Position numbers and translations under genes: made by a program. A stretch of DNA of 63,799 nt, counting the filler, from Reclinomonas americana ATCC 50394 (Eukaryota), in NCBI GenBank assembly GCA_048213135.1. It is 6 parts of 5 records of this genome, joined end to end, with 100 filler letters (N's around TTAATTAATTAA, not from the genome) between each part and the next. Parts side by side here need not be neighbours in the genome. Positions count along the whole stretch, not along the records: positions 1 to 5,882 come from PS015319.1; positions 5,983 to 10,161 come from PS015319.1; positions 10,262 to 32,547 come from PS015320.1; positions 32,648 to 57,936 come from PS015321.1; positions 58,037 to 61,044 come from PS015322.1; 1 more part is not named here. One strand, given 5' to 3'. The notes under the pieces were generated by a model. It saw only the letters and a list, made by a program, of their open reading frames with translations. It ran no database searches and was not told the DNA's origin. Below, one piece after another: positions 1 to 60,314 of this stretch (its first letter is position 1; each line of letters begins with the position of its first letter).

Positions 1-3000
1 TGCGCCTCAAGCTCCACCACTCGCTCCCGCCACTGCTTGCGCTCCTTCAAAAAGTCGGACTCGCGCTGCCGATATACCTCCTCCATGCGGATCACCAAGT
101 GGCTCTCCTGCTCATGTCGCTCCTGCTCGTGTTGCTGATGCAGCAAAGCGGCCACGCGTTCGGCCAGGTTCTCGGACGACGTCACGAGATCCTCCATGGT
201 CTCACGGTGGTTCAGCAGGCGTTCGTTGGAGGCCAGGGCGTTGCTGCGGGAGGGGAAAGGGGAAGAGGTGAGGGAGAAGGTGAGGGAAGAGGTGAGGGAA
301 GAGGTGAGGGAAGAGGTGAGGGAAGAGGTGAGGAAGAGGTGANNNNNNNNNNNNNNNNNNNNNNNNNNNNNNNNNNNNNNNNNNNNNNNNNNNNNNNNNN
401 NNNNNNNNNNNNNNNNNNNNNNNNNNNNNNNNNNNNNNNNNNNNNNNNNNNNNNNNNNNNNNNNNNNNNNNNNNNNNNNNNNNNNNNNNNNNNNNNNNNN
501 NNNGGGAAGAGGTGCGGGAAGAGGTGAGAGAGAAGGTGAGGAAAAGGTGATGGAGAAGGTGAGGAAATGGTGATGAGAAGGTGATGGAGAAGGTGAGGGA
601 GAGGGTGAGTGACGATGTGAGGGAAAAGGTGAGGGAGAAGGTGAAGGAAGAGAAGATAGACAATGTGGGAGAAATGGTAACAGAGTATATGAGGGAAGTG
701 GTGAGGGAAGAGGTGAGGAAAAAGGGTAGCCAGAGGGTGAGGGAGAGATGATGGAGAAGGTGAAGGAGAGGGTGAGGGCAAAGACGAGAGAGACGGTCAG
801 GGCGAAGGTGAGGGAAACGGTGAACGACATTATGAGCGAAATAGTGAAGGAAAAGTTGAGTGAGAGATAGGGAGGGAGAAGGTGAGAGAGAAGGCGACAG
901 TAGTGTGAATTGAAGTCACTCATTGGAGTGGAATGAGGGACTGCAGGTGATGTTATCAGACGCGAGAAGAGAGAGAAATATAGAAAGAGAAAGAGAGAGA
1001 AAAATAGAAAGAGAGAAGCAGAGAAGAGAGAAAGAGAGAGNNNNNNNNNNNNNNNNNNNNAGAAAGAAAGAAAGAAAGAGAGAAAGAGAGAAAGGAAGAA
1101 AGGAAGAAAGAAAGAGAGAAAGAGAAAAAGAGAGAAAGAAAGGAGAGAGAGTGTGAGAGTGAGAGTGAGAGAGCCGAGAGACAGAATCGACTTCCTTGCC
1201 CTTCCGTCGCCGCCTTCTCCTCTTCCACTCTTCCCCTCCTCTTCCCTAATTGATGCCTGTCTGTGCGTACGCAACACCAGCTGCCGGCAAACATGTTGAT
1301 ACTCGTGGCGCAGCTCCTGAATATGCTGCCCGTACTCGCGCTCCATGATCTCGCGAACGCTGCGCACTGAGTTGTCCACACTGCAAATAGAGTGAAAGTG
1401 AGTATTACCAGTCACCTTTAACCTTCTCCACGTTTTCGCGCACTCACTTTTCCGTGACATCACGCGTGTACTTGATTAGGCAGCGGAACAAGTCGGCGGT
1501 CGTACACCTGACAATCTCCATCAGGTGGCCCCTTTGCACCGAGGTGGTCAGTGTCTGTCTGGTGAGCTCCGACAGCGGCACATCGACCAGTGCATCCCAC
1601 AGCTTGTAAAACGTGTCGGCTACGTCGTAGCCGTTCGCGCCTGAAGTCTCCGGGTGCTGAATGATCTGCAAGAGATCACCGTGCTCGGCTGCCAGCTGGT
1701 CCATGGCACGACCGAGCAGGAGGACTTCTAGTCTGCCAGATGGGTTGTCCGAGGGGAACAGTGGTGTCACCGATGTTGCGCGCTGCGAGAAGTGGTTGAG
1801 TGTAAACCATTGAGAATTCGACTGAGAAGGAATTTGTGCACACCTGCTTCCCCGTACTCGGAGCCAGCACCTCTGCGAGTGAGTTGCCAGTGGAAGCCGA
1901 CGACGAGACGTGATGGACGTGTAATCTGGTAACATCGCTCCAGGTGAGTATCCTGTGCTGATTTTCGCTGATTTCTCTTGTCTCACCTTTGTGGAATTCG
2001 ACTTGGTGGCAGCGTTGCAGCCTTCTCGCCACCCTCCGTGTTGAGAGCAAACGCTGGCCCGTTATCGATAAAGGCAATGAGGTTGCTGCATTCGCTGACT
2101 GGTGGCGATTGTGGTCGCTCCGACTCGGTCTGTTGTTTTCACCTGTGGTCAGCAGCAAGCGCAACACACCACACACACTCACTCGCTTTCCACGCACCTC
2201 TGCCTGTCGAGCAGAGCCGGCCGAGCTAATGGCATCCAATCGCGCTTGTATCGGTTCGGGTGTGCACAGCACTCCACGCACTCGCATGTCCTCCGCAATG
2301 TGCTGCGCGAGCATCTTGCTCTGCAGGAACGACATGCCAAGATCCATGCCCTGCTCGTGCGTGAGTACTCTGCGCACGTCTGAAGAGGCTATTATCATCG
2401 AGGCACACCTTCATCTTGATTTGCCGCTGCAGCGCCGTCAGCTGCTCGACTTCGTGCCACTGGTCGGTGGCGGCGGCAATCTTTTGCAGCTGCGACAGAG
2501 TCTCCGACACGTCCATCTGTGGGGTTACGACTCGTGAGCAAGCTAGTTCACGCAAGACCGATTGGCATTGTTCCTCGCACGCACCACAGCATGCACGGCA
2601 GCAATCTCATTGGCAGAGGCGGCGTCGCACGAGTCGCCCGCAAACTCGCCCTCGTCACCTTGCCATGGCGCGTCGCGCTCTTGTTGTGCAGATTGACCGG
2701 CGGCGGCTTCCTGCTTGCTGCGCTGCAGGTCCTTCAAGTGCCGTTGCAGGGAGGCGGCGGTGATCACGCCATTGGTGGTCTCACTGGCGGAGTCGAGACC
2801 GGCCAGTGCTCTGCACCACAGAAGGAGTAAGCACAAGTGATGGTGACAGGTACGCTATCAGTGTGGCAAACCGCGCAGAATCCAGTGGCCAGTCCGCGTC
2901 GCTCAGCAGACCGTCGTCGCTCGCCGCAGCAGTCTTCGACTTGTTTCCGTGCATCATTTGCAACACCCTGTGCAATCCCGTGTCAAAACAATGGACGTCG

Positions 3001-5573
3001 CGACGCATCGTGAATCGCCGATGCACTCAACTGCTGACTCGATGTGGCCTCCGGCTTCAGTCGGCACAGATACTCGGCAATGCTGCCGCACTCGAGGAAG
3101 GCCTTGGGGGCGGCTGGCCGTGGCACCTCTGCTTGCGACGTGGGCTCGGTGGAGGTGCGGCCGGTTTTCATGGCCTTGCGGACGATGGGTGGGGTTGGAG
3201 GGTGTACTTCCGTGAGCGAGGGGATGAGTTTCTCTCGTGGAGGTCTGCGGAAGGGGAAGGAGAAGGCAAAGGGGTAAGAAGGGGTAAGAAGGGGAAGGGG
3301 GAAAGGAGGAAGGGGGAGGGGGGTAAGAAGGGGAAGGGAAGTGGGGAGAGGAGGGGGAGGGGAGAGAGGAGGGAGAGAGACTGAGGGATGGAGAGGGAAA
3401 GATGGAGAGGGGGAAAGAGGGAAAGGGGAAAGGGGGAACGGGCGAAAGGGGGAAGGAGGAAGAGGGAAGGGAAAGAGAGGACGGGAAGGGAGAGAGAGGA
3501 GGGAGGGGGACTGAGGGATGGAGAGGAGAAAGGAATTGAATGGCGAAAGGGAACGAGTTGGGACGGATTAAGAGGAAGGGATGGCGAGGGAGACTTAGAG
3601 AGAGTATGAGAAGCTGGAATGGATAACGAAAAAGGGAAGGGAAGGGGAGTCAGGACCGGAGAGAGAGGAGGACAGACTGAGGGTGGTGAGGGAAGATGGG
3701 AGTGGAAGAATGGAGAGGGAGAGATGGAGAGGGCAGGAACGGGGAGGACGGCATGTAAAGGTACGAAAGAAGTGGGGAAAGAAAATCATTGGCGACAGGG
3801 AACGAAGAGGCACGGATTGAGAAGAAGGGAACGAATAAGCGCAGATTTGAGAGGGAGGGAAGACATAGATGGGAGAAAGAAGGGCGAGAATGGAAGCGAG
3901 GGATGGTGGAAGAGGAAGAAGGCTCTGTGAGGCGGATTAGGGTGGCGGTGGCCTGCAGAGAGGCGTGGAAGGGAGAAGAGTGTGTGAGGGGAAGGATGAG
4001 AGAAGGAAGAGGGAACAGGGAAGAGAGAAGAGGAAGAGGGAAGAGAGAAGAAAAAAGTCTGTGAACGGGAGGAAGTGAGAGGGAAGAAGAAGGAAGAGAG
4101 TGAGGAAGGAAGAGAAAAGAAGGAAGAGAGTGAACGAGTTGGCGAGGGAGGAAGGACCAGGTGGAGGTGAGTGGAGAAATAGTGGGAAATCAATATTGAC
4201 GGGCGATGATGAGGGATAGATGAGGAATGATGGTTGAAGAGAGAATAACAGACAGATACGAGGTGAAACAGACAGTGAAAATAGAGGCACGCTGACGCAT
4301 CCACAAGGTGATACTCTCGCTCCCCTGTCGCTCCCTTTCTACTCACTCTTGTCGCTCCTTCGGCTCCCATCGGAAGGAGAGAGAGCTCTCACTTCGTCCA
4401 CTGTGTCCACCACCACCACCACCACCAGTTGTGCCGCCAATGCCACTGCCCATCTTCTTCATGAGATTGTCGGTGGACGGCAGCAGTTTGATCGGTGATC
4501 GTCGCTGCTTCTGCGGTGTCTTCCACGCCGCACTGCCGCCCATTGGCGGACCAGGCGGAGCCATGAACGTCGGATCGACATTGGAGGCCATGGACTGCAT
4601 GAGCAAAGTGAGTGAGAGGCAGACTCCACTGAACAGAGTGGAATAAGTGAGAGATCGCACCTCCAATTCCGTGTAGACATCGCGATCTGGTGCGTCGAGC
4701 ATGGCATACAGACTGCGCCGATGCCCGGAATTGGGAGCCGCCGCAAACTGCGACATGTCCACCTGCGGCAACATCTCCAGCGACTTGGAGGCCAGTGGAG
4801 TGGTGCGAGCAGACGACGACTGTTCTTATCGAGTAAGACACACACTTGTGTGAAACGCAACAACGAAGAGCAGCGCAACTCCACTTGGCGGTCTCCGTCG
4901 GCTCTTACTGGGCGACACCGAAGCCTCTTGTCGCGCATGCTCTCGCACGCGTTGCATCTTGGACGCTGAACAATTTAACATAGAGAAACAAGAGCGGCAT
5001 CAATTTAGCTTGAACCGGGCATGATAACCAATTTACACACACACGCAGCATCTCTCGGCACCCGCCCTCTTGGTAACACACACGCACACACGCGCAAAAA
5101 AGATGCACACACATACAGACACACGCACATACTAACTCAAGCAGATACGACACGAGCGACAGAAGTCACAAGGCGTGACTATCCGTCACCTGCAGACGCC
5201 TTTTTCCTCTCAAACCCACTGCTCGCGCTCTCTTACATACACGTACACTCTGGCAGGCATACTACCGCACACAGGCACACTCATACATACACACACTCGA
5301 CGAAGAAGGACACCATGCGTGCCGGTTGACCATATTCGGGAACAGCATTGCCTCTCTCTCTTCCACTCTCTCCTCTCACCACTCACCTGGAAACAACGAC
5401 GCAGCAGCATCAGCAACCGCCGCAATCGCGCCCTCTCCTCGTCCTCGCGGAGTGTAGGACACCACACCTGTGCTGATCTCCAGTGACACCCCGCCACTTC
5501 CTGTCATTGCCATTGCTCTCTCATTGCCAGTGGCAGTGGTGGTAACGCTCACTGGCGTCGTCACTCCGGCCAT
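1..5573 (-). CDS. Axonemal dynein light chain domain-containing protein (AXDND1-like), multi-exon, 3' end runs off the window
   Basis: About 14 GT-AG exons splice in frame from MAGVTTPV (ATG 5573). The core LFPSDNPSGRLEVLLLGRAMDQL...LSELTRQTLTTSVQRGHLMEIVR resembles the Ax_dynein_light motif (ELIRQV...RGxLLxxVR) and the AXDND1 LFPS..P..R.EV segment. Coiled-coil exons follow (1276-1381, 1-244). Confidence 0.7.
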
Positions 5574-5815
5574 CTCTTTTTTGCGATGTTTGTTGACTTT
5601 TCTCGCGTTTTGATGCAAAGTGCAACGGCACATGTCCATCCGTCGGTTCGGGCGGTGGATTGCTCTCACTGAGAAATGGCGGACGTGGGCGAGGTGGGAG
5701 GAAGTGGGATAAGAGGTGTGTTAAAAGGGAAAGAGGAAGGGAAAGGGGGAAGGAGGGGAAGAAAGAGAGAAAAGGGGGAGAATTTGAAGAATAGTTGTGT
5801 TTTCTGAGGTTGAGA

Positions 5816-5853
<38 letters not shown>

Positions 5854-5882
5854 GAGGAAGAGAGAGGAGAGAGGAAGAGAGA

Positions 5883-5982
5883 NNNNNNNNNNNNNNNNNN
5901 NNNNNNNNNNNNNNNNNNNNNNNNNNTTAATTAATTAANNNNNNNNNNNNNNNNNNNNNNNNNNNNNNNNNNNNNNNNNNNN
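5883..5982. other. Artificial scaffold spacer (N-TTAATTAATTAA-N, stops in six frames)
   Basis: The same ~100-nt linker recurs at ~10162-10260, 32548-32647, 57937-58036 and 61045-61144. Confidence 0.97.
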
Positions 5983-5999
5983 CTTCTTCGTTCGTCGTC

Positions 6000-6048
<49 letters not shown>

Positions 6049-6254
6049 CTGTCTCTCCTTCTGCTCCTTCTCCTCTTCCCCCTCTTCTCACCTTCTCCTT
6101 CCCCTTCGCCTCCTTCCTCTCCTCTCCTCCCCTCCCACCATCCCTCCCTCCCTCCCTTACTCCATTCCTTCTCTCTCTCTCATCACCTTCTCCTTCCCCT
6201 TATCCTCCTTCCCCTCCTCCCCCTCTTCTCACACCTCCTTCCCTCGACCCCCAG

Positions 6255-9200
6255 TTGGGCGGAGAACGTACAATTCCCCATCAACCTATGCGACCTGCCG
6301 ATCGACACGGTGCTGGCGCTGACCGTGTGGGACACATTTGCGCCGCATCGCGCCGTGCCCGTCGGCGGCACGACGGTATCACTCTTTCGCAAAAAGAGGT
6401 TTGTTTATGTTGTCTTCCTCCTCCTCCCTTGCTGTCCCCCACCAACCTCATTTTTTTCCTCGTTGGCAGCTCGCTGCTGCGCAGTGGCGCACAGTGCCTG
6501 CGCATTCATCTCAACCGCACCGCCGATCCGCGACTGGAGAGCGACACGCCAGCCTCCATCAAGGAGAAGAGCGACAATCAGCGGTTAACCAAGGTGTGCT
6601 GGCGGCGCAGCACATATTGGGTGTGCCTCTCCTGTGTCCTCACTCGGTGCTGCAGTCCTTTCATCGCTTCCAAACCGGCTGTCTACCGCAAATGACGTGG
6701 CTCGACCTGCTTTTCTACAAGGAGATGAATCGGCGGCAAAAGGTACGCTTCCTCGTGCGCACATGTGCCCGGATTGTGTCAACGTGCTGATCAAATAAAC
6801 CCGCAGGCCGCCCTCTTGGACGGCGACACCGTGTTCCTCAACGTCACACTGCCGGCGTTCAACGGTCCGGTCATGTTTGCGGAGAAGAAGCAGGAGTATC
6901 CGCCGCTGACGGGCGTCGGTCGCCCGTTCTACGGCAAGTCGTTGAAGGATGCCGAGGCGCTGGTGCAGGCGGGCAGTGTGCTGACGCCCGGAGCGGTTCC
7001 TCGTTGCGTTGAAAAGGGGAAGGAGAAGGGGGAAGGAGAAGGGGGAAGGAAGAGGGGGAAGGAGAAGGGAGAAGGAGAAGGAGGGAAAGGAGAAGGGGGA
7101 AGGAGTAGGGAGAAGGAGAAGGAGGGAAAGAGAAGGGGAAAGGACAAGGGGAGCAGGAGAAGGTTGAAGGAAAAGGGTGAAGGAGAAGGGAGAAGGAGCA
7201 AGGGAAAGGTGAAGGTGGACGGAAAAGAGGTTGAGAATGGTGAAGCAGAAGGGGGAAGGAGAAGGGGGAATTTGCAAGGGGGAGGAGAGCATGATCACGA
7301 GGAGACCGCAGTGTTGTTTCTAACGACGCCATTACCTCTCGTAGGCACGGTCTCCACTGCAAGTGCGGCGGCTCCGGCAACTGCGGCGGCAGGTGGCAGC
7401 GGTGGCCCGGGTGGATTCGCGGGTCCTGGAGCACCTCGAAGGAAATTGATCGATCCTGCCATTGATCAAGACAGTGCGGTGGAGGCGCTGTATGTCCGTC
7501 TGGCGGTCTCCATGTCCACGCATCACGCGCAGGGAATGCGTGATTTGCGGCCGGACGCCTCGGAGAGGCAGCAGTTGGAGGTGCTTCCGTAAGTGCTCTT
7601 TTTATTCCTCTCCTTTTCTGTGCTGACCGTGACCGTGGGCACAGCGCATCATCAACGCCCCACCGATCGGCAGCATCCCGGCGCATGCGCGCGAGTTGCT
7701 GTGGCAGTATCGGTATTTCTTGTCCAGCAGATACCCAAAGGTGAGCGGGGAGAGAGAGATATAGGGAGAGGGGAGAGGGGAGAGGGGAGAGGGGAAAGGG
7801 GAGAGGGAGAGAGAAAAGGAGAGGGGAAGAGAGAGAGAGGAGGACGGAAGAGACATAAGAGGGCAAGAGACAAGAGGGCGGGAGAGAGAGGAGTGTGGAA
7901 GAGAGAGAATAAAGAGAGAGGAGGAGAGAGATAGAGGGAGAGAGGAGGGCGGGTGGGCGAGAGAGAAGGGAGGACGCGAGAGAGAAAACGAGGAAGGCGA
8001 GACGCAAAAAGGAATGAGCGAGAGAGTGCAGGGAAGAGAAGCAAGGGAGAGAGAGAGAGAGAAGTGCAGTTCAAGTTACTCATCATTTCCCCCGTCACAG
8101 GCACTCGTCAAATTCCTGCGCTCGGTGGACTGGAAGAAAGACGACGAGCGACGTGAAGCCGTCTCAATCACCAACGAGTGGATGGCCATTGAAATCGCCG
8201 ATGCTCTCGAGCTGCTGTCGCGTGAGTTTTCCGCGAATCAGTTTGTGCGCAAGTATGCCGTGAGCCAGCTGGGATCGACGTCGCCCGAGGTCATGTCGTG
8301 GTGTCTGCTGTTAGTGCGAGAAGCAGTGACTGACTTGCGCGCGACAACCAGAACTTGAGTCACTACTTGCTGCCGCTGGTGCAGGCGCTGCGCTACGAGT
8401 CCAGTGAGGAGGGCAGTGGGTTGGATGAGTTTTTGGTGTCGCACACCATTGGTCATCGGGATTTGCTGTCGCAGTTGTACTGGTGAGGGTGAAGGGGAAG
8501 GGCGGGTGGGGGAAGGGAGGAAGGAGGGAGGGGGGAAGGGAGGTATGGGAGGGAGGGAGTGAGGGTGGTAAAGAAGAGGAGAAGGAAGTGTGGAAGGGAG
8601 GAAGGGAGGAGGGAAGGGAGGTATGGGAAGGAGGGGAGGAAGAAGGGAGGTATGGGAAGGAGGGTGAGGTTGGTCAAGGAGAGGAAAAGGAAGGGAGGAA
8701 GGGAGGAAGGGTTGAGTAAGTCAAGGGGACCGAGGGAGGGAGGGAAGGCAGTGAGGGAAGAGATTTATTGAGGCAGAGTCAATTTGAGGAAAGAATAGAA
8801 TGTGAAAGGCAGTGAGGGAATGAGGAAGCGGGCAAGCAGGGAAGGTTGGGAAGGGAGCAGAGGAACAAAGAGAGAGAAGGAGTGGAAGGTTGGAAGGCAA
8901 GGGAGGAATGGAGAAGAAAAGAGGAGATAGTTGAGAGCGGGAAGTAGGGTGGAAGTGGGTCGAAAAGACGAAGAGAGCCAGGGTTAATTGGACGAGGAAG
9001 GCAGTAAGGGGAAAGGGGGAAGGAAGGATTTATCGATTCTCGCCTTTGCAGTCGATAGCCTGACTGCTTTGTTCACTCAGTGTGCTCGCGCATTCTGCTC
9101 TCTTGGTCTCTTCCTCGCTGTCTTTGCTTTCTGCTTGCGCTCTATATCTTTTCTGCTTCCCTCTTTATTGGTGTATTCTTCCCTTGTTCCTTCCTCCTTT

Positions 9201-9823
9201 CCTTGCTCATGATGCATTCCTGTACAGGTATCTGAAAGTGGAGGCGGAGGACGAATCATCTGCGGGTATATTCGAACGCGTGCGACTGCGATTGGAGGCC
9301 GAATTGCGTCAAGTTGCGTCTCCTGCCACTTGCGGTGACGCGTCACTGTGGTGCTTACTTTCCGTGCCCGTCGCAGACACCACAAGGCCAGCAGTCGCTC
9401 GACTTGCTGAAGCGACAAGATCGCCTCGTGCAGTTCTTGGACTCGTTGCCGACGTACATTAAGAACTTGAAGGGTGATCGCCCGCGCAAGATTCGCCAGT
9501 TGCAGGATGACATTCGTGGGGGGAGGCTGGCCATGGATGATTTGTTCAGTGAGTGTGGGGAAGGGGGCAGAGAGGAGTAGAGAAAAGGGCCACGGCTGAC
9601 GAGTTGTATTGCAGCGCATTCGGGTCGCACGTATGCTTGCACACTGCCGCTTGCTCCGCACATTCCGCTCGTGAGCATCATCCCTGGTGAGTGGTGACAT
9701 TTGTCTGCAAGGTGATCGTCTGTGTTGCTGATGCGTGGTGCCGCAGACGAGGTATTCATCTTCAAGAGCGCCAAGCACCCGGTGCGCATCACCTTCCGCA
9801 CGCTGGATCGGCAGTTGTACTCG
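6255..9823 (+). CDS. VPS34: Class III phosphatidylinositol 3-kinase Vps34, partial (C2 and helical domains, start of kinase domain)
   Basis: Spliced product contains DLPIDTVLALTVWD...VPVGGTTVSLF, WLDLLFYKE, ALVKFLRSVDW, IEIADALELLS, YLLPLVQALRYE, LYWYLKVE, LPLAPHI and FKSAKHP. Truncated at both scaffold ends. Confidence 0.95.
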
Positions 9824-10260
9824 GTGAGTGCAGCGAGAGACGTGAGGGTCAAGGGCGTGTTGAGCTTTGGGGAAGCTGCTGATAACATATGCAGTTTTGA
9901 AACCTCTCTGTCTCTCCTTTACTTCTTGTCTCTTTGTCTCTGAGTCTCTCTTCTTTTCTTCTCTTCCCCCCCCTCCTCTCTCTCTATTTGCCGCACTTAG
10001 TGTCTCACTTTGTCTGTCTGTGTGCGTCTCTGTGTCTCTGTGTTCCTGTGTATCTCTGTGCGTCTGCCACTTTGCTCTCTTTGTACCACTCTTTGTCCTA
10101 TCTTTCACGTTGTCTCTTTTTCACCCATGCCCCTACTCTCTCTCTCTCTCTCTCTCTCTCTNNNNNNNNNNNNNNNNNNNNNNNNNNNNNNNNNNNNNNN
10201 NNNNNTTAATTAATTAANNNNNNNNNNNNNNNNNNNNNNNNNNNNNNNNNNNNNNNNNNN

Positions 10261-13200
10261 NTGGAGAGTGGCCCGGTGCCACTATCCGTCGACCGCACAG
10301 TCACCACGAGTCCGTTGCCGACTGTGCCAGCCGCGGTGATGCGCAGTTGACTGCCAGCGATGTTGAACAGTGCCGCATTCGTGCCGCCAACAATGGAATA
10401 GGTGAATGTCTGGCTCGAGTTGGCATCCGTGGTCGACAGAGTTCCCACCACCATGTTGGCTGTGGACGGCGGCGTGTACGTGGTCGCCGTAAGGCTGATA
10501 TTGCTCGGCGCCACGTTGGCTGCGATTGCAATCCGACACCAGTGAGTAAGTAAGACACATTGGGCTTTTCTAAAACATGCATCCCCACAAGACCTTCATC
10601 GATTGTAAACGTCTTATCTAAGAACAATGGGCCGGCGCCACTATCCGTCGTCCGCACAGTCACCACGAGTCCATTGCCGACCGTACCAGCAGCGGTGATG
10701 CGCAGTTGACTGCCGATAATATTGAACAGGGCTGCATTCGCGCCGCCAACGATGGAATAGGCGAAAGACTGGCCCGAGTTCACGTCCAATGTCGACAGCG
10801 TTCCCACCACCATGTTGGCTGTGGACGGCGGCGTGTATCTGGTCGCCGTGAGGCTGATGTTGCTGGGCGCCATGTTGACTACGTGTGTAACGAGGCACAG
10901 TCAGCGAGGGAAAAAACGAATACGGATATTGCAGTGCCTGACGAGACCTTCGCTGAGGGAAAATGTCTTCTCGACGAATAGTGTAGAGAAGGCGCTGTCG
11001 GTGGCGCGAACCTGAACGCTGAGGTTGTTGCCAGTGAGGCCAGTGTTGGTCGCACGAAGCTGGTTGGTTGAGATGTTGAACGCGGCGGCATTGGTGCCCC
11101 CTACGATGGTGTATGTGAAACGCTGACTGGCGCCCGCTCCAGTGGCATTAATGGTGGCCACTACCTGGTTCGCGACCGTCGGGAACAGGTACGTGGTGGC
11201 CGACAGCGTGATGTCAGTCGGAGCAACATTATCTATCACACATTGTGTGCGCGGGAGTGAGTGAGCGTGCAGAGGGGAAAAAGCCTCACAGAGAAGCACT
11301 CACCGGCAGTAATCGTAAACGTCTGGTCGATGTAGTTGCCTGCCGAGTCGGTGGCTCTTACTGTCACTGTTAGACTTGTTGAAGCCACTCCGTTGGTGCT
11401 AATGATAAGCGTGCTGTTGCCACTGATCGAAAACGAGGCACCATTGCCGCCGGCGACAACAGAGAAAGTAATGGTGTCGCCGACGGTGGGATCGATGGCA
11501 GACAGAGTGCCGACGACCGTGGACGTACCCGTCGATGGGGCAGTGTACCGATTGGCGGAGAGACTGATTGATGTGGGAGGTACGTTCCCTGCATCAACAA
11601 GAGGGTGAGAGGAGAAGGAGAGAGAGAGAGATGACGAGGGACAGCTCTCTCTGCGCTGTCTTGATCCCGGTGCAACACACCTGTGGCGCAACACGTCATT
11701 CCATTCGGAATGTAGGCGCCGGGTGCGCCGGTTGCCGAGTTTGTCGCATAGTCGATGCGTCCCCACCCCACGCCAGCACACGAGTCCACCCCGCTCTGCT
11801 TGAGCATGCAGTCGCTGCCGATGCCTGCAATGTCATTGGCGCTCGCACTGGCAAAGTTCAGCGGCTGACACACATTGGCGTCCTGGGCGGCTGGGACGGC
11901 GTAGCACCCCGGAATGGTTGTCGACGCCGTCGCATAGGGGACGGCGCGCAACACTGTGGAGCTTGCAGAGGAGCAAGGCGTGTATCGAATGCTGCGCCAA
12001 GGTGAGACGACGCGAAACCTCAGTGCCACATGCACGTGCACAACGAGCTTACCCGTTGCACAAGGCGGTGGCGGTGGCGTCCGTGACCGTTGTCCACGTG
12101 CCCGTGCACAAAGCCACAGAGCCAGCGTTGTTGGAGAACGAGTATGTAGGGACTGCCTGCGCACCGCATGCTGGGAGGAGGGGAAAGGGGAGGAGAGGGG
12201 GTCAATTGTCGAAGCTGTGCGCAGAACGATTTCAGCAGATGCTCACCAGTGGTGGGAGCCGATCCATTGGCGTCGCACTGCATCCGTGCGAGAGTGTGAG
12301 AGTCGCAGAGGAGCGGGGAAAAGGCGATACACCGACGCAACAGTGGCGTAAATGAGCTCAATGTAATCGACGATGGTGTCGTCGTTGACAACCACATCCA
12401 CCTGCCGTAGCGGTAACCGTGCACGTGAGGGACGGATGCAAGGAGCGGACTCACTTAGCTACCCTCTCCTCTCCCTCCACGCAACTCTCTGATTAGCATT
12501 GATCAGCGCCAGCAATCCGGTGGTGGTACTGACGTCCACCGTGAAGAGCACTCCTGTGGGGTACGTTGTGGTGGAGTAACCCGGCGCCTGTGTCGAGATC
12601 GCCTGCTTGTAGTTTGGTGTCTTCCACGTGGTGCCCGAATTATGCACGCCCACTTGCACGGTATCGTTGTCGGGAATGGAGGCGACGTTGTAGCCGGTGA
12701 CCAGGAGGCGAACAATAACCGACGACATGTTGCTGGGCAGGCCGGCAAACGTGGCCAACACGTTGGTGTCGACTCCGGTCGAGTCAAAGTCTTTGGCCGG
12801 CTTGATGCCGGCCGCCAGTGACGCCGACGGTGATGCGGGGTCTGCATGGAGAGAGAGTGATGAGCTGGAAGGAAGGAGGGGAGAGAATATCTCTGATGTG
12901 GAGGTGTCACAGGCGCATAAACAGGAATCGGGCGCGAAAAATCAATGTCGTTGAAAAGCGACCCCAATGCTGCCAGAAAACGCGCCCAGCACTGCCACTC
13001 ATTGTCTCCCACTCAGCAGAGTACTCACATGCTCACGCAAACGCACACAGACGCGCAAGAGAGAGAGAGAGAGTGATTGACGAGTGCGCAATCGAGATCT
13101 CTCTCGCTCATCACACTCATCACATTCATCTTCCCACAGTCACACACACTCACCTGTTGGTAGTGCAAAGTTGTCCTTGATGCCCTGCAACACGGTGGTT

Positions 13201-27234: not shown

Positions 27235-28108
27235 TTCCAGTGCAGTACGTCGACGACGGCGACTTGTGGCCCTGCGGCCGGTGATCCTCGTCCTCAATCT
27301 CGGTCTGCGCTCGGGAACCGCCAAGCTGCCAGTGCACTACGGCGACGATCCGCACGAGGTGGCGCAGCAGTTTGTGCAAGAGCGCGGTCTCGACGAGCAC
27401 CTCGTGCCGCGCATCCGTGACCAGATTGAGGAGAACTTGCCGCGTGGCGAGGAACTGGACCAGCTGCTGCGCGAGTACGACGTACCGCAGTCGCCGCCGC
27501 CGCCTCCCGCCCTTGTCAGCTCGTCACCGCAACCGCGTCGGCAGGCGACGCCGCGATCACCGCTGTCACCGTTGTTCACTGCGGCGGCTCTGGGCGCCGC
27601 TCGTGCACACTCTGCGCAGACCACACCGCGCCGACGCGGCAGTCGGCCAGCCACCAATCCACTCGTCTCACCGCGGTCGGACATGGCCACCGAGTCGTTC
27701 CTCACGCTGACACCGACACAACACGATCGAGCCTCACAGAGCGACGCCACATCACTCGTGGCGACGCCCATGTCGGGCATTGGCCGCGGCCCCGCTCATC
27801 ACCACGAATTCGACGACTCGGTCGACGACGGCACGCCGCGCAATCTGTCGTCGTCGTTTGATGCCTCCCTGTCGCCGCGATCACCACCACCACCAATTGC
27901 TCGCCCTGTGGTGCTGCTGGCGCACTTTGCGCTGGGTGCGGGGAGGACGGAGACCGTGGCGGTGCGCGACGGCGACAATCCCGAACAGCTGGCGCATGAC
28001 TTTGTGCGGCAGCACAACCTCGGTCCGCATGTGGTGCAGCGTGTGCTGCAAACACTGCGCGACAATCTCGCTCACGGCGCTCAACAACAACAACAGCCAC
28101 CACCATGA
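27235..28108 (+). CDS. C-terminal exon with two PFU-like (PLAA/Doa1 ubiquitin-binding-like) repeats; may continue the upstream gene
   Basis: KLPVHYGDDPHEVAQQFVQERGL...IRDQIEENL and VAVRDGDNPEQLAHDFVRQHNL...LRDNL resemble the PFU pattern LKLPYN..DDP..A..FL...L. Ends in TGA. Confidence 0.65.
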
Positions 28109-52235: not shown

Positions 52236-52285
<50 letters not shown>

Positions 52286-52350: not shown

Positions 52351-52401
<51 letters not shown>

Positions 52402-52828: not shown

Positions 52829-52859
<31 letters not shown>

Positions 52860-54545
52860 TAGAGACGTACGACGACGACGACGACGACGACGACGACGTA
52901 CGACGTACGTACGAGACAGACCGAGACAGAGAGAGAGAGAGACTGAGCCAAAGACACACCAAACAATAGGAGACAGAGATAATAAGAAAGCAAGACAGAA
53001 ACACACACAGAGTGAGAGTGAAACAAACACGCAGATTGACAGACAGTCACAGAGACAGACGGGCAAACAGACATCGAGAGGAGAGAGTGACAATGAGAGG
53101 CATGAGAGACGATAACAGATAGAACTAAAAAACAGCGCACGCACCAGAACATAGCTCGCACACACACACAACACACACATACACACACTCTCTCTTTCAA
53201 AGTCTCACATACATGCATGCAGGACGAGATTAACACGGTAGACAAACAGACAGACACGACAGAGGCGACGAAACATAACAACTGCAAGACGCAAGCCGCA
53301 ATCGGAACAACTAATTCTACACACAGTTCACCGCACGCACTTCTCGTCCTCTCTCTCTCTCTCTCTCTCCTCCTCCTCTTCCCTTTCTTTCCCTTCAATC
53401 CCCTTCCCCGCCCCTCCGCCTTTCCCCATCAATTACCTCTCGAGACCAACTCGGGTGTGCTCATACGTCGATTTTCTCTCCTCATACACCACCTCGACCT
53501 CGTGCACGCGCGCCTTCAGCTTTTGCAGCTCTGTTATGTGCGGCTGCAGGTACACACGTTTTTGCTGCGCCACATCATTCATCAGCAACCGACACTCGAC
53601 TCTTAACAGATCTCTCTCTCTTCCCCCCACAAACCTCGAGCTTGGCATTGAACTCCTCCACTCGGTGCGAGTACTCCTGCAGCAATCGCTCATTCATCTC
53701 GTCCATATCGCCCTTCATCTCCGACACGCGTTCCATCTTGGAGTGCGCGTCGCGGAAGCCAGACACGCCGTGCTTGGCTTCGGCTGTGCACGCGAAAAAA
53801 GTGAGTCCACGTCACTCAATCTTTTCCCCCCGCGCCTCGACGCAACTCTCGGCAATCTGGCCCTGCAGCTTCTCGCTCTTGCGCGCCAGCAGTTGCTCTG
53901 TGCGCGCCAACACGGCCTCCTCGGCGTGCAGCGCATCCAAATCCTTCATGAGCTTCTTGGCGCGGCCCGACTTGTCGCGCAGGTCGGCCACAAACTTTTT
54001 CATTTCCTCACCGCCCTTCGGAATGCGCTGAGGGACAGGAGTGGAAGTGTGAGTAGGCAGGCAGTTGGAGGGAGAGAGGGGGACCGCAGTTGGAGGGAGA
54101 TAGGGGGAGAAGGGGAGGAAAGGAACGGGGGAAACAGCGCTGTCTGACACAGTGCACCCGTCGCTCGGCGCAAATTGTGGCAAGTAGAATGCCACGCGTT
54201 GAGCGCGCGCAAAGGGTGCACCAGGCCAACATCCCAACAAGGGTGTCGCTTTTGCCCAGAACTAGAGTCAACGAGCCTTGGCATAGGTGTCATCGTTGAC
54301 AGGGAAATTTCGTGGGCGATGCCAAAAAGGGGAAGGAGAGCAAGAGACGGGAATGAAGCAGACAGGAAAGAACCCACGGTATCACGCAACTGCACCAAGC
54401 AGCACTCCAGAGGGATCCTTCTCGCGCAGCTTGCTCTCGTATGCAGCCTGCTCCTCACGCAGCCTCTGCAGACGCTCCAAGATGTCTTGTTTCTTCTTGG
54501 CGACAATGTTGGCTGTCGACAAGCGACGGTGAGTGCGTCAGGGGC

Positions 54546-54585
<40 letters not shown>

Positions 54586-54646
54586 AGAGAGAGAAGAGTG
54601 ACTCGTACTGCGTCNNNNNNNNNNNNNNNNNNNNAGAGAGACAGAC

Positions 54647-54683
<37 letters not shown>

Positions 54684-57600
54684 CACATATACATACAAAA
54701 GAACACACGAAGACACATTCAGACATCGGGTCACTTCACGCCCTCGTCAGCCGTCTCGCAAAACACCCACAACGCAACTGCTTCTGCACCTCCGGCTGGC
54801 GAACCTGCAGCTCCTGCACCTCTGTGCGCAGCTGCGACAATTGTCTCTCCAGATCCTTCGGATCCACATTGTCGTACACAATGCGGGTGAGACGATCGAC
54901 CTGCTCACCAACATCATCAGAAATTGCCACACTTCCCCCAGCGAGTCACAAAAAGAAGACCGCACGCAACATCCTGTCGCATGTGGTCAATGTCGCGCGG
55001 CAACTGCTCGCGGCAAATGTGGCGCTTCTCGGCCACGTCGCGCTCCAGTCGCTGCTTCATGCCCTCAATGCCCACGGAGCGCGTCTCCGCCTGCCGAAGG
55101 AGAGAGAAGACGTGAGAAGCGCGAAGGAAGGAAGTGACAATCGAATGCATTGACAAACCTCGACTTCCTTTTGCTTGCGCTCGGCTGCCTTCAGCTCCTT
55201 CTTTCGTTGTGCCAACTGCTTCAACTGGTCCTCCAGCTTATCCTTCAACGTGGACTCCTCCTGCTTCTCCTTGCGCAGCGCACCGACGGTTTGCACGAGA
55301 CGGTCGACGTGGGCCTGCACAGGAGTGAGTGAGTGAGTGAGTGAGCAGTGGAAGACAGAGCGTGCCTTCATCATCTCATCTCACCGTGTCGTCCAACTTG
55401 CGCTTCGCCAGCGCAATCTTTTGTGTCAGCTGCTCCTTCTGCTCCTCCAGCTTGGAGATCTCCTCACGCGTCTGCGCCGGGTACTGCTGCAGATTGCGCA
55501 TGCTGTCGACAGTCTTGTGAATCTGCTTGAACTGATCGGTGGCCGATTGGTAGGCTTGGAAGGTCTCCATGAGTTCTGCCAGACAACACCATGAGTGAGG
55601 GAAGAAAAGGATAAGAACCGTGATATCGTTCTAATTTGCTATCTCTCCACACAGACGCCAACAGTCGCACTCCCAAACTCTCTTATTCGCCCCGCACTCA
55701 CTCGCTCCAACACACCCAAGCCTACACTCTCTCACTTGCACACTCGCGCTCTCTCATGCATAAGTGTCACATTGAAATGCAGTCGTTCTCTAAAACTGTG
55801 GTGTTGGTACGTACAGAGCGCACATCTCGGTCCCTTGTTCTCTCTCTCTCTCTCTCTTTCCTTCCCTCTATCGTATTCCCCCACACTCGACGTTCACACT
55901 GCCTTCTACCCGTTCTCTCGTGCTCCTCTGATCGCTTCTCAGTCATCTTGTGTCAGCGCGAGTGGAAAAAGAAGTCTTTCGGTTCCCTCTCTCTCTCTCA
56001 CTCTCTCCCTCGCCCTCTCTTCCCCCGACAATCACCATCATCCGTGTGCAACAACTCATCCGGCACCGTAATGGCGAGCAGGAAGCGTGACAGATACACG
56101 CGCTTCTTGAGATCGGCGGTCTTCTTGAAGATCCACGACATGAGCGGATAGATGGTCATGCGGTCGCCGTACAGCAGGCCCTCGCGGAATTCCCCACTGT
56201 GGAGAGAGGTGGAGTGAGAAGGCGACGAAGATAGACAGAGTGAGATGCATGGCACTTGCACGCAACATCTCACGCGGCGGCTTGTAGTTCAGGACTCGCA
56301 CGACGAATTGCACGATGCGGCCGAGTTGCTGCTCCGGGGTGAGGCCTGCGGGCGTCGAGGGAGGAGAGTGATGATGATGAGGGAATGGGGNNNNNNNNNN
56401 NNNNNNNNNNNNNNNNNNNNNNNNNNNNNNNNNNNNNNNNNNNNNNNNNNNNNNNNNNNNNNNNNNNNNNNNNNNNNNNNNNNNNNNNNNNNNNNNNNNN
56501 NNNNNNNNNNNNNNNNNNNNNNNNNNNNNNNNNNNNNNNNNNNNNNNNNNNNNNNNNNNNNNNNNNNNNNNNNNNNNNNNNNNNNNNNNNNNNNNNNNNN
56601 NNNNNNNNNNNNNNNNNNNNNNNNNNNNNNNNNNNNNNNNNNNNNNNNNNNNNNNNNNNNNNNNNNNNNNNNNNNNNNNNNNNNNNNNNNNNNNNNNNNN
56701 NNNNNNNNNNNNNNNNNNNNNNNNNNNNNNNNNNNNNNNNNNNNNNNNNNNNNNNNNNNNNNNNNNNNNNNNNNNNNNNNNNNNNNNNNNNNNNNNNNNN
56801 NNNNNNNNNNNNNNNNNNNNNNNNNNNNNNNNNNNNNNNNNNNNNNNNNNNNNNNNNNNNNNNNNNNNNNNNNNNNNNNNNNNNNNNNNNNNNNNNNNNN
56901 NNNNNNNNNNNNNNNNNNNNNNNNNNNNNNNNNNNNNNNNNNNNNNNNNNNNNNNNNNNNNNNNNNNNNNNNNNNNNNNNNNNNNNNNNNNNNNNNNNNN
57001 NNNNNNNNNNNNNNNNNNNNNNNNNNNNNNNNNNNNNNNNNNNNNNNNNNNNNNNNNNNNNNNNNNNNNNNNNNNNNNNNNNNNNNNNNNNNNNNNNNNN
57101 NNNNNNNNNNNNNNNNNNNNNNNNNNNNNNNNNNNNNNNNNNNNNNNNNNNNNNNNNNNNNNNNNNNNNNNNNNNNNNNNNNNNNNNNNNNNNNNNNNNN
57201 NNNNNNNNNNNNNNNNNNNNNNNNNNNNNNNNNNNNNNNNNNNAGTTCTGTAAACCTCAGAAGCGATAGATCGCACGACGCCCGTGCAGCACACAGTCTG
57301 GGCACTGAGCAGTAGCGACAGTCCTCCCTTCTCCATTCGTTCTCTCTCTCTCATTTCTGAAAACAGACTGCTTCATCTTGCCTTTGACCCTCGACTCCCT
57401 TGACCCTTGACCACAAGGACAAGAGGCACAAACAGCTCCTCTCTTCTGGATCTCTTCTCTCTCTCTCTCTCTCTCATTCATATCACAGTCGGTCTTGACA
57501 AACAGACTACAGTAGCGACAGCCTTCCCTTCTCCTCTCTCTCTCTCATTCTTATCGCAGTCGGTATCGTCTCGACAAACAGACTGTCTGGGTGCTGAATA

Positions 57601-57888: not shown

Positions 57889-57936
<48 letters not shown>

Positions 57937-58055
57937 NNNNNNNNNNNNNNNNNNNNNNNNNNNNNNNNNNNNNNNNNNNNTTAATTAATTAANNNNNNNN
58001 NNNNNNNNNNNNNNNNNNNNNNNNNNNNNNNNNNNNACACACACACACTCACACA

Positions 58056-58148
<93 letters not shown>

Positions 58149-58295
58149 TCTCTCTCTCTTCTCCCTCTCACTGTCACGCAACGTCAGCTCGAGGCCAAGG
58201 TGCTCATTGAGTCCAGAGACAATGATTGACAACTCATGTGGCAAGTGGCCTTCGCCAGACACGCCACTGGGAGAGCCGAGACCAGAGTCTGTCAT
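51489..58295 (-). CDS. IFT81: Intraflagellar transport protein 81
   Basis: VLNYKPP...FREGLLYGDRMTIYPLMSWIF...LKKRVYLSRFL..I.VP, KKFVADLRDKS, GVSGF...MERVSEMKGDMDEM, ESLYHLIHC, PNMRQMLMFGNLNRLLDCK and terminal DRLVI*. The likely first exon (ELSIIVSGLNEHLGLELT) lies beyond the spacer at 57937-58036. Confidence 0.93.
57290..57810. repeat. Degenerate tandem duplication inside the 5' part of IFT81
   Basis: CACAAGGACAAGAGGCACAAACAGCTCCTCTCTTCTGGATCTC at ~57412 and ~57664. CGGTATCGTCTCGACAAACAGACTGTCTGGG at ~57561 and ~57733. Confidence 0.85.
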
Positions 58296-58664
58296 TGCTA
58301 ACTCGTGTGTGTGTGAGAGAGAGAGAAGAGAAAGAGTACGCAAGCCCACTCTCTTCGGCGGTTGAAAGGGTGTCGGACTGTAGACCATCGTCCGTTATGT
58401 AAACTGCAATTCAGTTTTCGTAGTAATCGCCAGCCTCGAGCTCCAGAGACTGGTACTCACCAAGAAGCAGCACGATAAGATAATGCTTCAACGACTGCCA
58501 CTGGCATGCGACGTCGCATCTCACAAGATGCATCATTCACGAGCTACATATCCACAAATCCCTTGCCGACATTGACCTTGGCACACCACCAATACTACAG
58601 AGGTACAGTTGCTGCTCTTTATCTGCCATCTTCCCTTTCAGCAGGCTACGCCATCGCCAATTAA

Positions 58665-58918
58665 AGGGACAGTTACCACTATAAAAGGCGAAATTTCAGA
58701 TTTCGCGCTCAGATGAAGATTTTATAGTGGGTGAGGAGAGGAGACAACTTGCTTCACGAGAGACAAGAGAGACAGGTGTTCTTGACTAGACGTGTGTGGG
58801 AGTGTCTGGCGTCTCTGCTGGTGTGAAGATGAGTGGTCAGAGATGTCAGAGAGATGAGAAAAGAGAAGTGGAAAGTATTTTTACGGGTGGACACAGAAAA
58901 TTTGGTGCCACTGTCCCT
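58665..58918. mobile_element. Non-autonomous DNA transposon (MITE), Kolobok-type
   Basis: TTAA (58661-58664) + AGGGACAGT ... ACTGTCCCT + TTAA (58919-58922): a 9-bp perfect TIR with AGG..CCT ends and a TTAA target-site duplication. 254 bp, no transposase. Confidence 0.7.
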
Positions 58919-59271
58919 TTAATCGCGCTTTCCCCCAGTGTCTGTCTAACGCTGCAAGGGCGTGGGTGGTGCACAGGGTCAGCCAGTGTGCAATCTGCAG
59001 TCTGGGTCTTTTCCCCGGCGACTGCAAGCCACCTGTATGCATGGTCTGAGGTCGACGTTCGTGCATATGCAATTGTTGCCCGCAGCGTCCATATTTTGGG
59101 TTTTCGAATTCTCACTATCGACAATTCCTCCTGAGAAGAAGAGCAGACGACTGGGTTGGTTTTGAGGCTCATGTCCTGTGTACGGATCTGCAGCGACAAA
59201 TGAAATCGCGGGACGGCGGCGGAAACGCATTTTATTTTGTTGAGTTTTGATTTGTTCTCTGAGCCATCGTC

Positions 59272-60314
59272 ATGACGTCCACATACCTCCTCGCTTGCCT
59301 CTTGCTTGTGATCTTGCTGGCCGTGGCTGTGATCACCACTGTGGTGCGTGTCAGCCTCGCGGTTTCATGATCAAACGTTAACCACCTAAATTTATCCGCG
59401 CATGCCGTGCATTGATTGCTCGTGACACGCAGGTTGCTTCTGATCCTGTCGTGGTCGACAACAACTATCGCGATGAGGCGCACGCATCAGCGGATTCGCT
59501 GTCGGGTCGACTCTTCAACGCAACTCTTGATGTCGCCAACTCGGCATTCCAAACGAAGTTTATCCAGGGCATCAAGGCCGGCACGCTGAACCCCGATCAG
59601 TATGGCGCTTACATGGTGCAGGATGTTGTCTACTGTGCGAGAGGTAAGTGACGATCATTCATTGTGTGCCGAAATGAGCTTTTATTGAATCATTTCCGGC
59701 TGACAGCAACCAAGACCTGGCAGCTGCTGGCGGACAAGTACCCGAATGACCCGTACCACTCGTTTTTCATGCAGCGTGTACAGAGCTATACCTCCTACAC
59801 GAACAGCATGATGCAGCAGTGGGGAATCGGAGACGTGTCCGGCATTGTGCCTAATACGGCCGTGACAGATTACAGCAAGTTTGAGCAAGATGTTGCCACT
59901 GGCATGCAGCCAGTTTACTCGCTGGTGAGACACTCTGCTAATACGGGTGTTGCACTTGTCGCTGCGGTACAGTTTGCACTGTTTCTAATGTCTGTGAGGC
60001 GCTGTGTGCATGTGCATGCGCAGGTGTCGCAGCTGGCTTGTGAAATGCTGTGGCCGTGGCTGGCCAACCAGCTCGTGCCGAGTGCCGGCAATGCTTACTC
60101 GGTGTGGATCACCGAGAATCAAGGCACCATGTTCGGTCACTTGGCTGTGTTCCTCGACCAGCAGGCACAGGAGTTGCGTGGCCTTTTCTCAGGCATGCCA
60201 TTTTGCTTATCGTCTCACACCACGGATATCAGCGCCGACTTCAACACCGCGCTACAAGTATTCCGGCAGGCGATGAACCACGAGTTGGCGTTCTTCAACT
60301 CGGCCAACCAGTAG
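59272..60314 (+). CDS. TenA/THI-4 family (thiaminase-like, haem-oxygenase-like fold) protein with signal peptide, 5 exons
   Basis: Leader MTSTYLLACLLLVILLAVAVITT. Motifs FIQGIKAGTLNPDQYGAYMVQD, LACEMLWPWLA (catalytic-type Cys), YSVWITEN and FRQAMNHELAFF. Confidence 0.85.

Follow-up and report, generated by a model that had tools for sequence, protein, structure and literature searches.

How does a spliceosome find an intron that begins GTTGCGT, when the usual donor around it is G/GTGNGT (a slash marks the exon-intron boundary throughout)? The question is raised by a window of 63,799 bases, by which we mean the whole stretch of DNA analyzed here, from a very intron-rich flagellated eukaryote. 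GTTGCGT begins about one-sixth of the introns in this window, and it is a donor type rare in organisms studied so far. A preliminary description had listed 23 such donors and taken them for a class read either in a shifted register or by variant U1 or U6 snRNAs. We find that GTTGCGT followed by G or C is a discrete second donor class, comprising about 15–20% of introns. We consider it highly probable that this class consists of real donors, and hold with moderate confidence that recognition displaced by one base is the best-supported reading of it. For the whole chain, a real donor class together with shifted-register recognition, we put the probability at roughly one-half.

The motif itself is overrepresented. 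Each of the 23 listed coordinates carries GTTGCG on the strand assigned to it, and the reported spread over five scaffolds agrees with their presence on five of the six parts joined in the window. GTTGCG occurs 56 times, compared with 34.8±5.6 in dinucleotide shuffles, none of 100 of which attained 56. Extending the motif to GTTGCGT sharpens the excess to about 4-fold (31 occurrences versus 7.76±3.07, with 16 in the largest shuffle), and an order-3 Markov model predicts 9.9. Microsatellite units (GTGAGTG, GTGTGTG, and GTACGTA) are among the GT-initial 7-mers whose ratios exceed that of GTTGCGT.

Donor use was assessed with a gene finder that combines a branch-and-acceptor score and a length prior with a Markov model of codon positions, for which 21 long open reading frames (ORFs) rich in GC at third codon positions served as the training set. 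Its coding model was kept fixed; self-training drifted to near-universal coding calls. Run with a bare GT as the only donor signal, the finder placed 111 introns, for which the commonest donor hexamer was GTTGCG (10), followed by GTGAGT (8), and it recovered eight of the 23 listed sites. A second run, in which a learned table covered positions +3 to +6 only, placed 116 introns, with GTTGCG at 18, GTGAGT at 10, and GTGCGT at 7. The former share, about 16%, bears out the earlier figure of one intron in five or six. Thirteen of the 23 listed sites were recovered in this run, those missed being 1275, 4879, 7003, 19254, 20072, 26698, 32184, 45357, 50146, and 60173. These counts are estimates, because the finder is noisy and at times calls genes on opposite strands over the same stretch.

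We also scored all 6499 GT sites that lie outside simple repeats for intron-likeness without any donor information, using coding potential of the flanks in a compatible frame, loss of coding potential inside, the 3′ signal, and length, with introns limited to 400 nt. Enrichment among sites at or above the 95th percentile (13.99) was strongest for GTTGCG (14 of 55; Fisher p = 3.1e-7), followed by GTGCGT (9 of 62; p = 0.0034). Ten listed sites belong to this top 5%: 12485, 53846, 56266, 60173, 54970, 20179, 37058, 39455, 9313, and 20072. Four others are intermediate (38794, 49364, 26698, and 43226), and seven are weak (7003, 4879, 45357, 15884, 32184, 19254, and 1275). At 50146, a gap intervenes before any acceptor, and 30625 scores low only because its 744-nt intron exceeds the limit of the score. 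GTTACGT at 50008 had been suggested to fit the same pattern; none of six GTTACG sites reached the top 5%.

Individual junctions were tested in the gene for the intraflagellar transport protein IFT81, identified by Pfam at 53439–56337 on the minus strand. An exhaustive HMMER search with a conserved exon of this gene returned 258 relatives, 16 of which, all full length, were used to build a profile; the exons of the locus map in order to profile positions 58–538. At each junction, we formed all frame-compatible, stop-free GT...AG pairs within 45 nt and used the profile to score the peptide that each pair would yield on splicing. The combination of a GTTGCG donor and a CAG acceptor ranked first at all four junctions tested, one of which (54390) had not been listed before. 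The intron at 56197–56266 (minus strand, gat/GTTGCGTG, acceptor CCACAG, 70 nt, phase 2) was the best of six pairs, at 94.2 versus 85.0 bits, and its donor has an intron-likeness of 20.4 (top 5%). At 54901–54970 (minus strand, gat/GTTGCGTG, acceptor GAGCAG, 70 nt, phase 0; intron-likeness 19.8), the winning pair among seven scored 25.4; a different acceptor with this donor gave 21.1, and a different donor gave 18.5. The newly recognized intron at 54028–54390 (minus strand, gca/GTTGCGTG, acceptor CCTCAG, 363 nt, phase 0) was the best of eight pairs, with 61.4 versus 57.9 for the same donor and 57.8 for a different one. Finally, the intron at 53784–53846 (minus strand, aga/GTTGCGTC, acceptor GCACAG, 63 nt, phase 1; intron-likeness 21.0) scored 82.5 versus 74.5 and 73.6, the best of three pairs.

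Three of these donors, at 56266, 54970, and 53846, were on the earlier list, which had cited conserved IFT81 motifs in support. The spliced pieces of the protein (268 and 193 aa) are free of stops and align to relatives over their length. A probable fifth GTTGCGT donor of the gene lies at 54772–54778 (minus strand, gca/GTTGCGTT), at the expected end of an exon mapped to about profile positions 289–333; its intron enters a run of N at 54615–54634, and its intron-likeness is low (3.5). As comparators, the same procedure favored an ordinary intron at 55315–55384 (acg/GTGAGATG, a GTGAGA donor) and the ordinary donors atg/GTGATT at 56035, gag/GTTTGT at 55158, and gag/GTTTGT at 53634, all on the minus strand and all four with G at −1. 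The intron that starts at 56035 (55576–56035, minus strand, atg/GTGATTGT) is itself unusual in that its +5 is not G and its length is 460 nt, versus a median of 70 nt; its profile score is 132.9 versus 120.7. Identity of the window's IFT81 is about 30% alike to jakobids, animals, stramenopiles, choanoflagellates, cryptophytes, and apicomplexans. A word-based protein search with the IFT81 ORF gave no match, and a metagenome scan with the IFT81 exon found no relatives.

The class differs from other donors on the exon side. The last exonic base at the 23 listed sites is A in 13, C in 5, T in 5, and G in none, and +7 is T in 19, just as had been reported; also borne out is the statement that most other donors follow G, which stands at −1 in 41 of 62 predicted donors with G at +5 (hereafter ordinary donors). 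The difference in −1G, 0 of 23 versus 41 of 62, is significant at p = 6.4e-9, and it recurs within IFT81, where both kinds are validated by the same profile method (ordinary four of four versus class zero of four; p = 0.029). The −1 position of the class is closer to the ordinary −2; A stands at the former in 13 of 23 and at the latter in 18 of 62 (p = 0.024). Across the window, A precedes 12 of 31 GTTGCGT occurrences, versus 21% of GTT (p = 0.019). The class thus lacks the usual preference for −1G, mildly avoids G, and prefers A.

On the intron side, positions +4 to +8 of the class mirror positions +3 to +7 of ordinary donors, a displacement of one base: T stands at +7 in 19 of 23 class sites and at +6 in 31 of 62 ordinary donors, and G at +8 in 12 of 23 and at +7 in 29 of 62, respectively. 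Ordinary donors are degenerate at +3, +4, and +6. They commonly carry T at +3 (14 of 62, as GTTTGT, GTTCGT, or GTTTGC; for example at 6399, 53634, 55158, 19967, and 29622) and nearly lack G at +4 (1 of 62), both of which are unusual for a U1 with two U or pseudouridine residues at positions 5 and 6. The class had been described as the local GTGCGT donor with one extra T. The displaced consensus agrees with this, but under normal machinery the description leaves two things unaccounted for, a misfit to standard U1 and a scarcity of siblings. GTGAG is the commonest ordinary donor, so GTTGAG and GTTGTG would be expected to be as common as GTTGCG if the class were merely a displaced ordinary donor; they reach the top 5% of intron-likeness at 1 of 36 and 2 of 27 sites, versus 14 of 55 for GTTGCG.

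At their 3′ ends, class introns resemble the rest. CTCAC is the commonest branch motif in both sets (9 of 15 class introns and 16 of 51 ordinary ones), the branch A lies a median of 18 nt from the acceptor in both, and CAG ends 14 of 15 and 43 of 51 introns, respectively, a likeness that is partly built in because the 3′ model of the finder favors CTNAC and CAG. The two sets share a median length of 70 nt, and class introns occur in all phases. A YTNAY branch near a YAG acceptor in the 15 class introns, features that the finder's 3′ model favors, and restoration of the reading frame of a conserved protein at the IFT81 junctions mark these, as far as sequence can tell, as ordinary GT-AG, U2-type introns. 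The high probability that we assign to real donor use follows from the ranking by the motif-free finder, the enrichment in the top 5%, the four of four IFT81 junctions, and the preference there for GT over the GC-AG reading discussed below.

How such donors might meet U1 was examined in two ways, by scoring hydrogen bonds with the 5′ end of U1 and by computing duplex energies with duplexfold, the latter for the 14 best-supported class donors and 600 decoy GT sites. In the canonical register, the class scores 7.9, below decoys (11.6) and ordinary donors (15.7); moved by one base, it scores 13.9 versus 8.8 for decoys. By this measure, the class is more complementary to U1 in the shifted than in the canonical register. 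Duplex energies with standard U1 average −1.35 kcal/mol for the class, −5.98 for ordinary donors, and −3.09 for decoys, so that the class pairs less well than decoys; a shifted GUUGAGUG would attain −6.9, versus −2.5 kcal/mol for GUUGCGUG. When single substitutions were scanned at U1 positions 1–7, the class scored highest (16.9) with G in place of U at position 5, a change that slightly improves ordinary donors also. With the resulting ACGUAC 5′ end, duplexfold gave averages of −5.69 kcal/mol for the class, −7.15 for ordinary donors, and −3.98 for decoys, and +1G was paired with C9 in 7 of 14 duplexes.

We propose that recognition of the class by U1 small nuclear RNA (snRNA) is displaced by one base. 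In this arrangement, U+3 to G+8 (UGCGUG) would pair with U1 nucleotides 7 to 2, G+1 with C9, and A−1, when present, with U10; U+2 would stay unpaired, and cleavage would remain at GU. The excess of A at −1 fits its place opposite U10 in this register. The U1 involved may carry G for U at position 5 (ACGUAC), either as the organism's only U1 or as a second variant. With regard to the variant U1 or U6 snRNAs suggested earlier, this one-base change in U1 would best account for the data. With G at that position, the +5 C would become a Watson-Crick pair and the scarcity of GTTGAG and GTTGTG would be explained, and pairing with the common GTGCG donors would improve as well. The position-5 change, proposed from donor composition, is possible but rather doubtful. 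Equally tentative is the fuller picture it suggests, in which the major spliceosome would here use two 5′ splice-site codes: a canonical G/GTGNGT and a fixed A/GTTGCGTG read off register through ACGUAC or through a second, dedicated U1.

Several observations weigh against this account. The donor evidence is sequence-based (gene finder, motif-blind score, and homology), and every statement about U1 derives from 58 kb of donors. Support for the use of the 23 listed sites is uneven, for although ten lie in the top 5% and 30625 is backed by Pfam coordinates, eight are unsupported. That the motif is never preceded by G holds for those 23 sites but was overstated, as depletion against the background is modest (1 of 31 GTTGCGT, versus 17% of GTT; p = 0.023). 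The absence of −1G is also not explained by energy, because ACGUAC would pair a −1G about equally well through a bulged U+2 (−8.2 versus −8.4 kcal/mol). A shifted register predicts enrichment of C at −2, opposite G11, and C is found there in 3 of 23, versus 24 of 62 at the ordinary −3. Ordinary donors alone do not favor G at position 5 of U1 (margin over decoys 3.43 versus 3.34), and a test for compensation, in which donors with +4 C would have less −1G than those with +4 A, was not significant (p = 0.12 for all donors; 1.0 in the supported set). Nor does a C-rich consensus need a changed U1, because the Mamiellales (GYGCGY) and Thecamonas (+4 C) retain the standard one, according to a comparative study (bioRxiv 10.1101/2022.06.08.495308). 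The likeness of 3′ ends, finally, has the circularity noted above.

To these points must be added the outcome at the GT90 glycosyltransferase gene (Pfam, 19435–20802, minus strand), whose conserved motifs had been cited in support of the class. It contains a class intron at 20124–20179 (minus strand, gga/GTTGCGTC, acceptor TGTGCAG, 56 nt, phase 2), found by the motif-free finder with an intron-likeness of 19.1 (top 5%), and another at 20007–20072 (minus strand, caa/GTTGCGTC, acceptor CCACAG, 66 nt, phase 2), which joins HCKYK/YLVTMEG and scores 14.1 (top 5%). A word-based search with the GT90 exon returned one distant fungal protein, P0001, 33% identical; a metagenome scan with the exon found no relatives. 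Against P0001, splicing at both GTTGCG donors scored 77, versus 87 for combinations helped by spurious upstream matches. For the intron at 20072 alone, the score was 77 versus 71 for the next alternative in coding frame, and 77 versus 78 for one in a frame without coding potential. The GT90 gene is consistent with GTTGCG donors but is no proof of them, as the sole relative is too distant.

Among the alternatives to displaced recognition, the one that survives best is a bulged or asymmetric-loop register, which is nonetheless unlikely. Here, +1G and +2U would pair normally with C8 and A7, U+3 (with G+4 and C+5) would be looped out, and G+6, U+7, and G+8 would pair with C4, A3, and U2, with U6 taking in the same extra base, as in the human sites of the "bulge +2/+3" or "asymmetric loop" type. 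Such a register predicts the mirroring of ordinary positions from +3 by class positions from +4 as well as the shift does, duplexfold selects it for G/GUUGCGUG, and such registers have been proven in human cells (PMC4856993). What speaks against it is the exon: a −1G would add the strongest pair, with C9, yet G is found there in 0 of 23 class sites and 1 of 31 of all GTTGCGT, versus 41 of 62 ordinary donors, so that the favored −1G expected beside canonical pairing at −1, +1, and +2 is not observed. With standard U1, the duplex is weak even when −1G is present (−3.1 kcal/mol), and the preference for C at +5 is left unexplained.

Slightly less probable still is a dedicated recognizer for which only the 8 intronic nucleotides count and the exon is irrelevant, much like U11 at U12-type introns. 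Either an RNA-binding protein or a second U1-like snRNA whose 5′ end has broad complementarity to GUUGCGUG could fill this role. The class motif is near-invariant over seven to eight intronic nucleotides and has no −1G, the ordinary class being degenerate; its pairing with standard U1 falls below that of decoys, and its siblings are nearly absent, all of which such a factor would accommodate. Variant U1 snRNAs are known in humans (PMC3561869, PMC10870369). The 3′ signals of the class are, however, those of ordinary introns, a wholly separate RNA is not needed because a single U-to-G change in U1 accounts for the pairing, and an exon base is apparently read, because A is enriched at −1 (12 of 31 versus 21%).

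It is very improbable, and largely refuted, that there is no special class at all and that GTTGCG is merely allowed by a degenerate GTNNNN consensus or stems from wrong gene models. The degeneracy of ordinary donors at +3, +4, and +6 and the weakness of eight of the 23 listed sites would suit this view. They are set against the roughly 4-fold excess of GTTGCGT over shuffles, its rank as top donor hexamer without a motif prior, its enrichment among intron-like sites (p = 3e-7) with siblings at background, the four of four IFT81 junctions, and the −1 composition (p = 6e-9).

There is even less room for the possibility that these are GC-AG introns starting 3 nt downstream (GTT/GCGTG), or that the GT at +6 is used, either of which would make the donor more ordinary-looking. 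The GC reading stays in frame, GCGTG is the GC version of the local GTGTG donor, and the score gap is small at two IFT81 junctions (1.1 and 0.7 bits). Even so, the GT reading is ahead at all four, by a summed 12.3 bits: 94.2 versus 93.1 at 56266, 25.4 versus 20.3 at 54970, 61.4 versus 60.7 at 54390, and 82.5 versus 77.1 at 53846. A GC reading would also, implausibly, require an invariant GTT exon end in all three phases. As for the +6 GT, it loses to the class donor at 53846 (73.6 versus 82.5), and G is not enriched at +10 (4 of 23). We therefore rejected both variants on the IFT81 profile scores and the +10 composition.

U12-type introns are marked by an RTATCCTT donor and a TCCTTAAC branch site 10–15 nt from the acceptor. 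Relics of an introner or transposon burst carrying a terminal GTTGCGT, or a diverged U12-type class, would suit a discrete motif, the lack of an exon consensus, and a possible recent gain, but both are scarcely credible and were rejected: no pair of class intron bodies among 136 reached 24 bits (maximum 22.3), compared with 0.6% of ordinary pairs that did, so that without shared similarity they form no repeat family, and the U12-type hallmarks are missing, the donor being GTTGCGT and the branches CTCAC, CTTAC, and similar, as in ordinary introns.

Beyond IFT81 and GT90, class introns are found in several other genes. The CRT-like transporter gene (29343–30990, minus strand) has one at 29882–30625 (minus strand, tct/GTTGCGTC, 744 nt, phase 2), chosen by the learned-table finder. 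Pfam coordinates of the CRT-like domain stand at about 55–58 before the donor and resume at about 59–60 past the acceptor (interpolated, ±2); they are continuous across 30625, in keeping with the motif support claimed for this junction. A word-based protein search with the CRT exon gave no match. In the EF-hand exon (about 32185–32264, minus strand), the Pfam match stops within the motif, at the donor 32184.

The highest intron-likeness of any GTTGCG site, 22.6, belongs to the donor of an intron at 12402–12485 (minus strand, aga/GTTGCGTG, 84 nt, phase 0), found by the motif-free finder. The learned-table finder added a previously unlisted intron nearby, at 12278–12341 (minus strand, act/GTTGCGTC, 64 nt, phase 0), with an intron-likeness of 18.6 (top 5%). 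The motif-free finder also placed an intron at 37058–37115 (plus strand, ctc/GTTGCGTG, 58 nt, phase 1; 17.8), and the learned-table finder one at 39399–39455 (minus strand, aga/GTTGCGTG, 57 nt, phase 1; 15.6). Local analysis supplied the intron at 9313–9391 (plus strand, caa/GTTGCGTC; intron-likeness 15.6), whose acceptor is 9391 or 9394. A probable further intron, likewise unlisted, was predicted at 18693–18763 (plus strand, ctt/GTTGCGTC) by the learned-table finder; its score of 13.5 is just below the threshold of 13.99.

The intron at 60173–60232 (plus strand, gga/GTTGCGTG, CTCAC branch, ATCAG acceptor, 60 nt, phase 2) has an intron-likeness of 20.0, or 21.0 in local analysis. It is in frame and stop-free, and the ORF at 59652–60311 (220 codons) is open across it; read-through is therefore possible, and retention would add 20 residues without truncation.

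Some donors have close competitors. The listed GTTGCGA at 38794–38800 (plus strand) is followed 7 nt downstream by an ordinary GTAAGC at 38801, and the two score 12.1 and 13.2, respectively. Ordinary-looking donors also stand near GTTGCG at 37204–37215 (GTGTGAG at 37209) and 15876–15890 (GTCGTCG at 15876), both on the plus strand, where they score equal or better. These three sites may be tandem or alternative donors.

The window joins six parts of a draft nuclear assembly (1–5882, 5983–10161, 10262–32547, 32648–57936, 58037–61044, and 61145–63799) by artificial filler of the form N44-TTAATTAATTAA-N44, which places stops in all six frames (5883–5982, 10162–10261, 32548–32647, 57937–58036, and 61045–61144). 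It contains 28 runs of N in all. Microsatellites of (CT)n or (GA)n lie at several part ends, microsatellite-like repeats are abundant in intergenic DNA, and coding frames are GC-rich at third positions. Pfam, run on single ORFs (150, 150, 41, and 62 ORFs), named few genes. In addition to those given above, these are a PFU/PLAA protein (27236–28105, plus strand), TPR repeats (44421–45764, minus strand), RNA polymerase III Rpc34 (49552–49942, plus strand), and a BACK domain (63546–63797, minus strand). Well-supported multi-exon genes at 59652–60311 (plus strand), 36715–39300 (plus strand), and 10300–13000 (minus strand) have no Pfam match at E ≤ 0.01 or only weak ones (Big_9, LRR), and may encode lineage-specific proteins. 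An ORF of 210 codons at 62705–63334 (minus strand), without a Pfam match, has an extreme cysteine content, with CC and CxC runs.

A scan of the window with Rfam yielded no family at gathering score. At E ≤ 5, it yielded no snRNA and only sub-threshold miRNA- or snoRNA-like matches on low-complexity hairpins. Those at 47010–47290 and 34510–34700, on both strands, resemble plant and animal miRNA precursors (best 36.5 bits, against a gathering score of 96) and are most likely not genes, because they lie on low-complexity, hairpin-forming repeats.

In both sequence and register, the way in which U1 recognizes the 5′ splice site is regarded as nearly universal. If the two-code picture is true, off-register recognition would be a mainstream mode in this organism rather than a rare exception, accompanied by co-evolution of the U1 5′ end. 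One fixed off-register donor shared by some 16% of introns would offer a natural system in which to study the choice of cleavage site with U1 one base away, acceptance by U6, and the co-evolution of U1 and donors. In practical terms, gene finders trained with only one donor matrix would annotate some one-sixth of this organism's introns wrongly. Full-text searches of main articles, with few subscription journals among them, found no description of this donor class, either by its motif or among shifted registers in protists; among the splicing-related matches listed, GTTGCG and GUUGCG appeared only in primers, miRNAs, and aptamers.

Roca and Krainer reportedly described, in 2009, human 5′ splice sites that are recognized in a shifted register. 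The window class is like these in having GU followed by U, a poor canonical fit to U1, and a good fit when moved by one base, and also in that +1G would lie opposite C9 with cleavage kept at GU. It differs in scale, the human type being a handful of sites and the present class about 16% of introns, and in form: it is one fixed GUUGCGU, unlike the GUUAAGU-like human sites, and pairs poorly with standard U1 (−1.35 kcal/mol). With U12-type introns, the class shares a long, near-invariant intronic donor motif without an exon consensus, present beside ordinary introns; unlike them, it has other donor and branch motifs, and its 3′ ends are those of ordinary introns.

The human bulge and asymmetric-loop registers (PMC4856993) are alike in placing an extra nucleotide between GU and a G resembling that at +5, and in that positions out to +8 or +9 matter. 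Those sites keep the exon consensus, whereas the window class is without −1G; the study leaves out sites able to pair canonically. It puts all noncanonical registers together at 1.5–2.1% of 201,541 human donors, and it is only for this fraction, about 1.5–2%, that off-register pairing is documented (PMC4856993).

Changes of the U1 5′ end are reported for very few lineages. The archamoeba Mastigamoeba balamuthi has a U1 candidate with ACGUAC and donors that prefer GUGCGC, and Entamoeba has ACAAAC with GUUUGU donors (bioRxiv 10.1101/2022.06.08.495308); we met the ACGUAC precedent only after the substitution scan on the window donors. The present organism is like M. balamuthi in its donors rich in C at +4, and the G at position 5 of that species' U1 is the best-fit substitution found here; ordinary donors of the window include GTGCGT and GTGCGC, the latter comparable to GUGCGC. 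The Archamoebae differ in being described with one consensus in the canonical register, compared with an additional, apparently shifted second class in the window, and the published figures for the M. balamuthi genome (60.7% GC, 3.4 introns per gene, mean intron 137 bp, N50 442 kb; PMC8136499) are unlike the window. Measured against these systems, what is new here is the abundance, and the single fixed sequence, of a donor class that resembles off-register sites.

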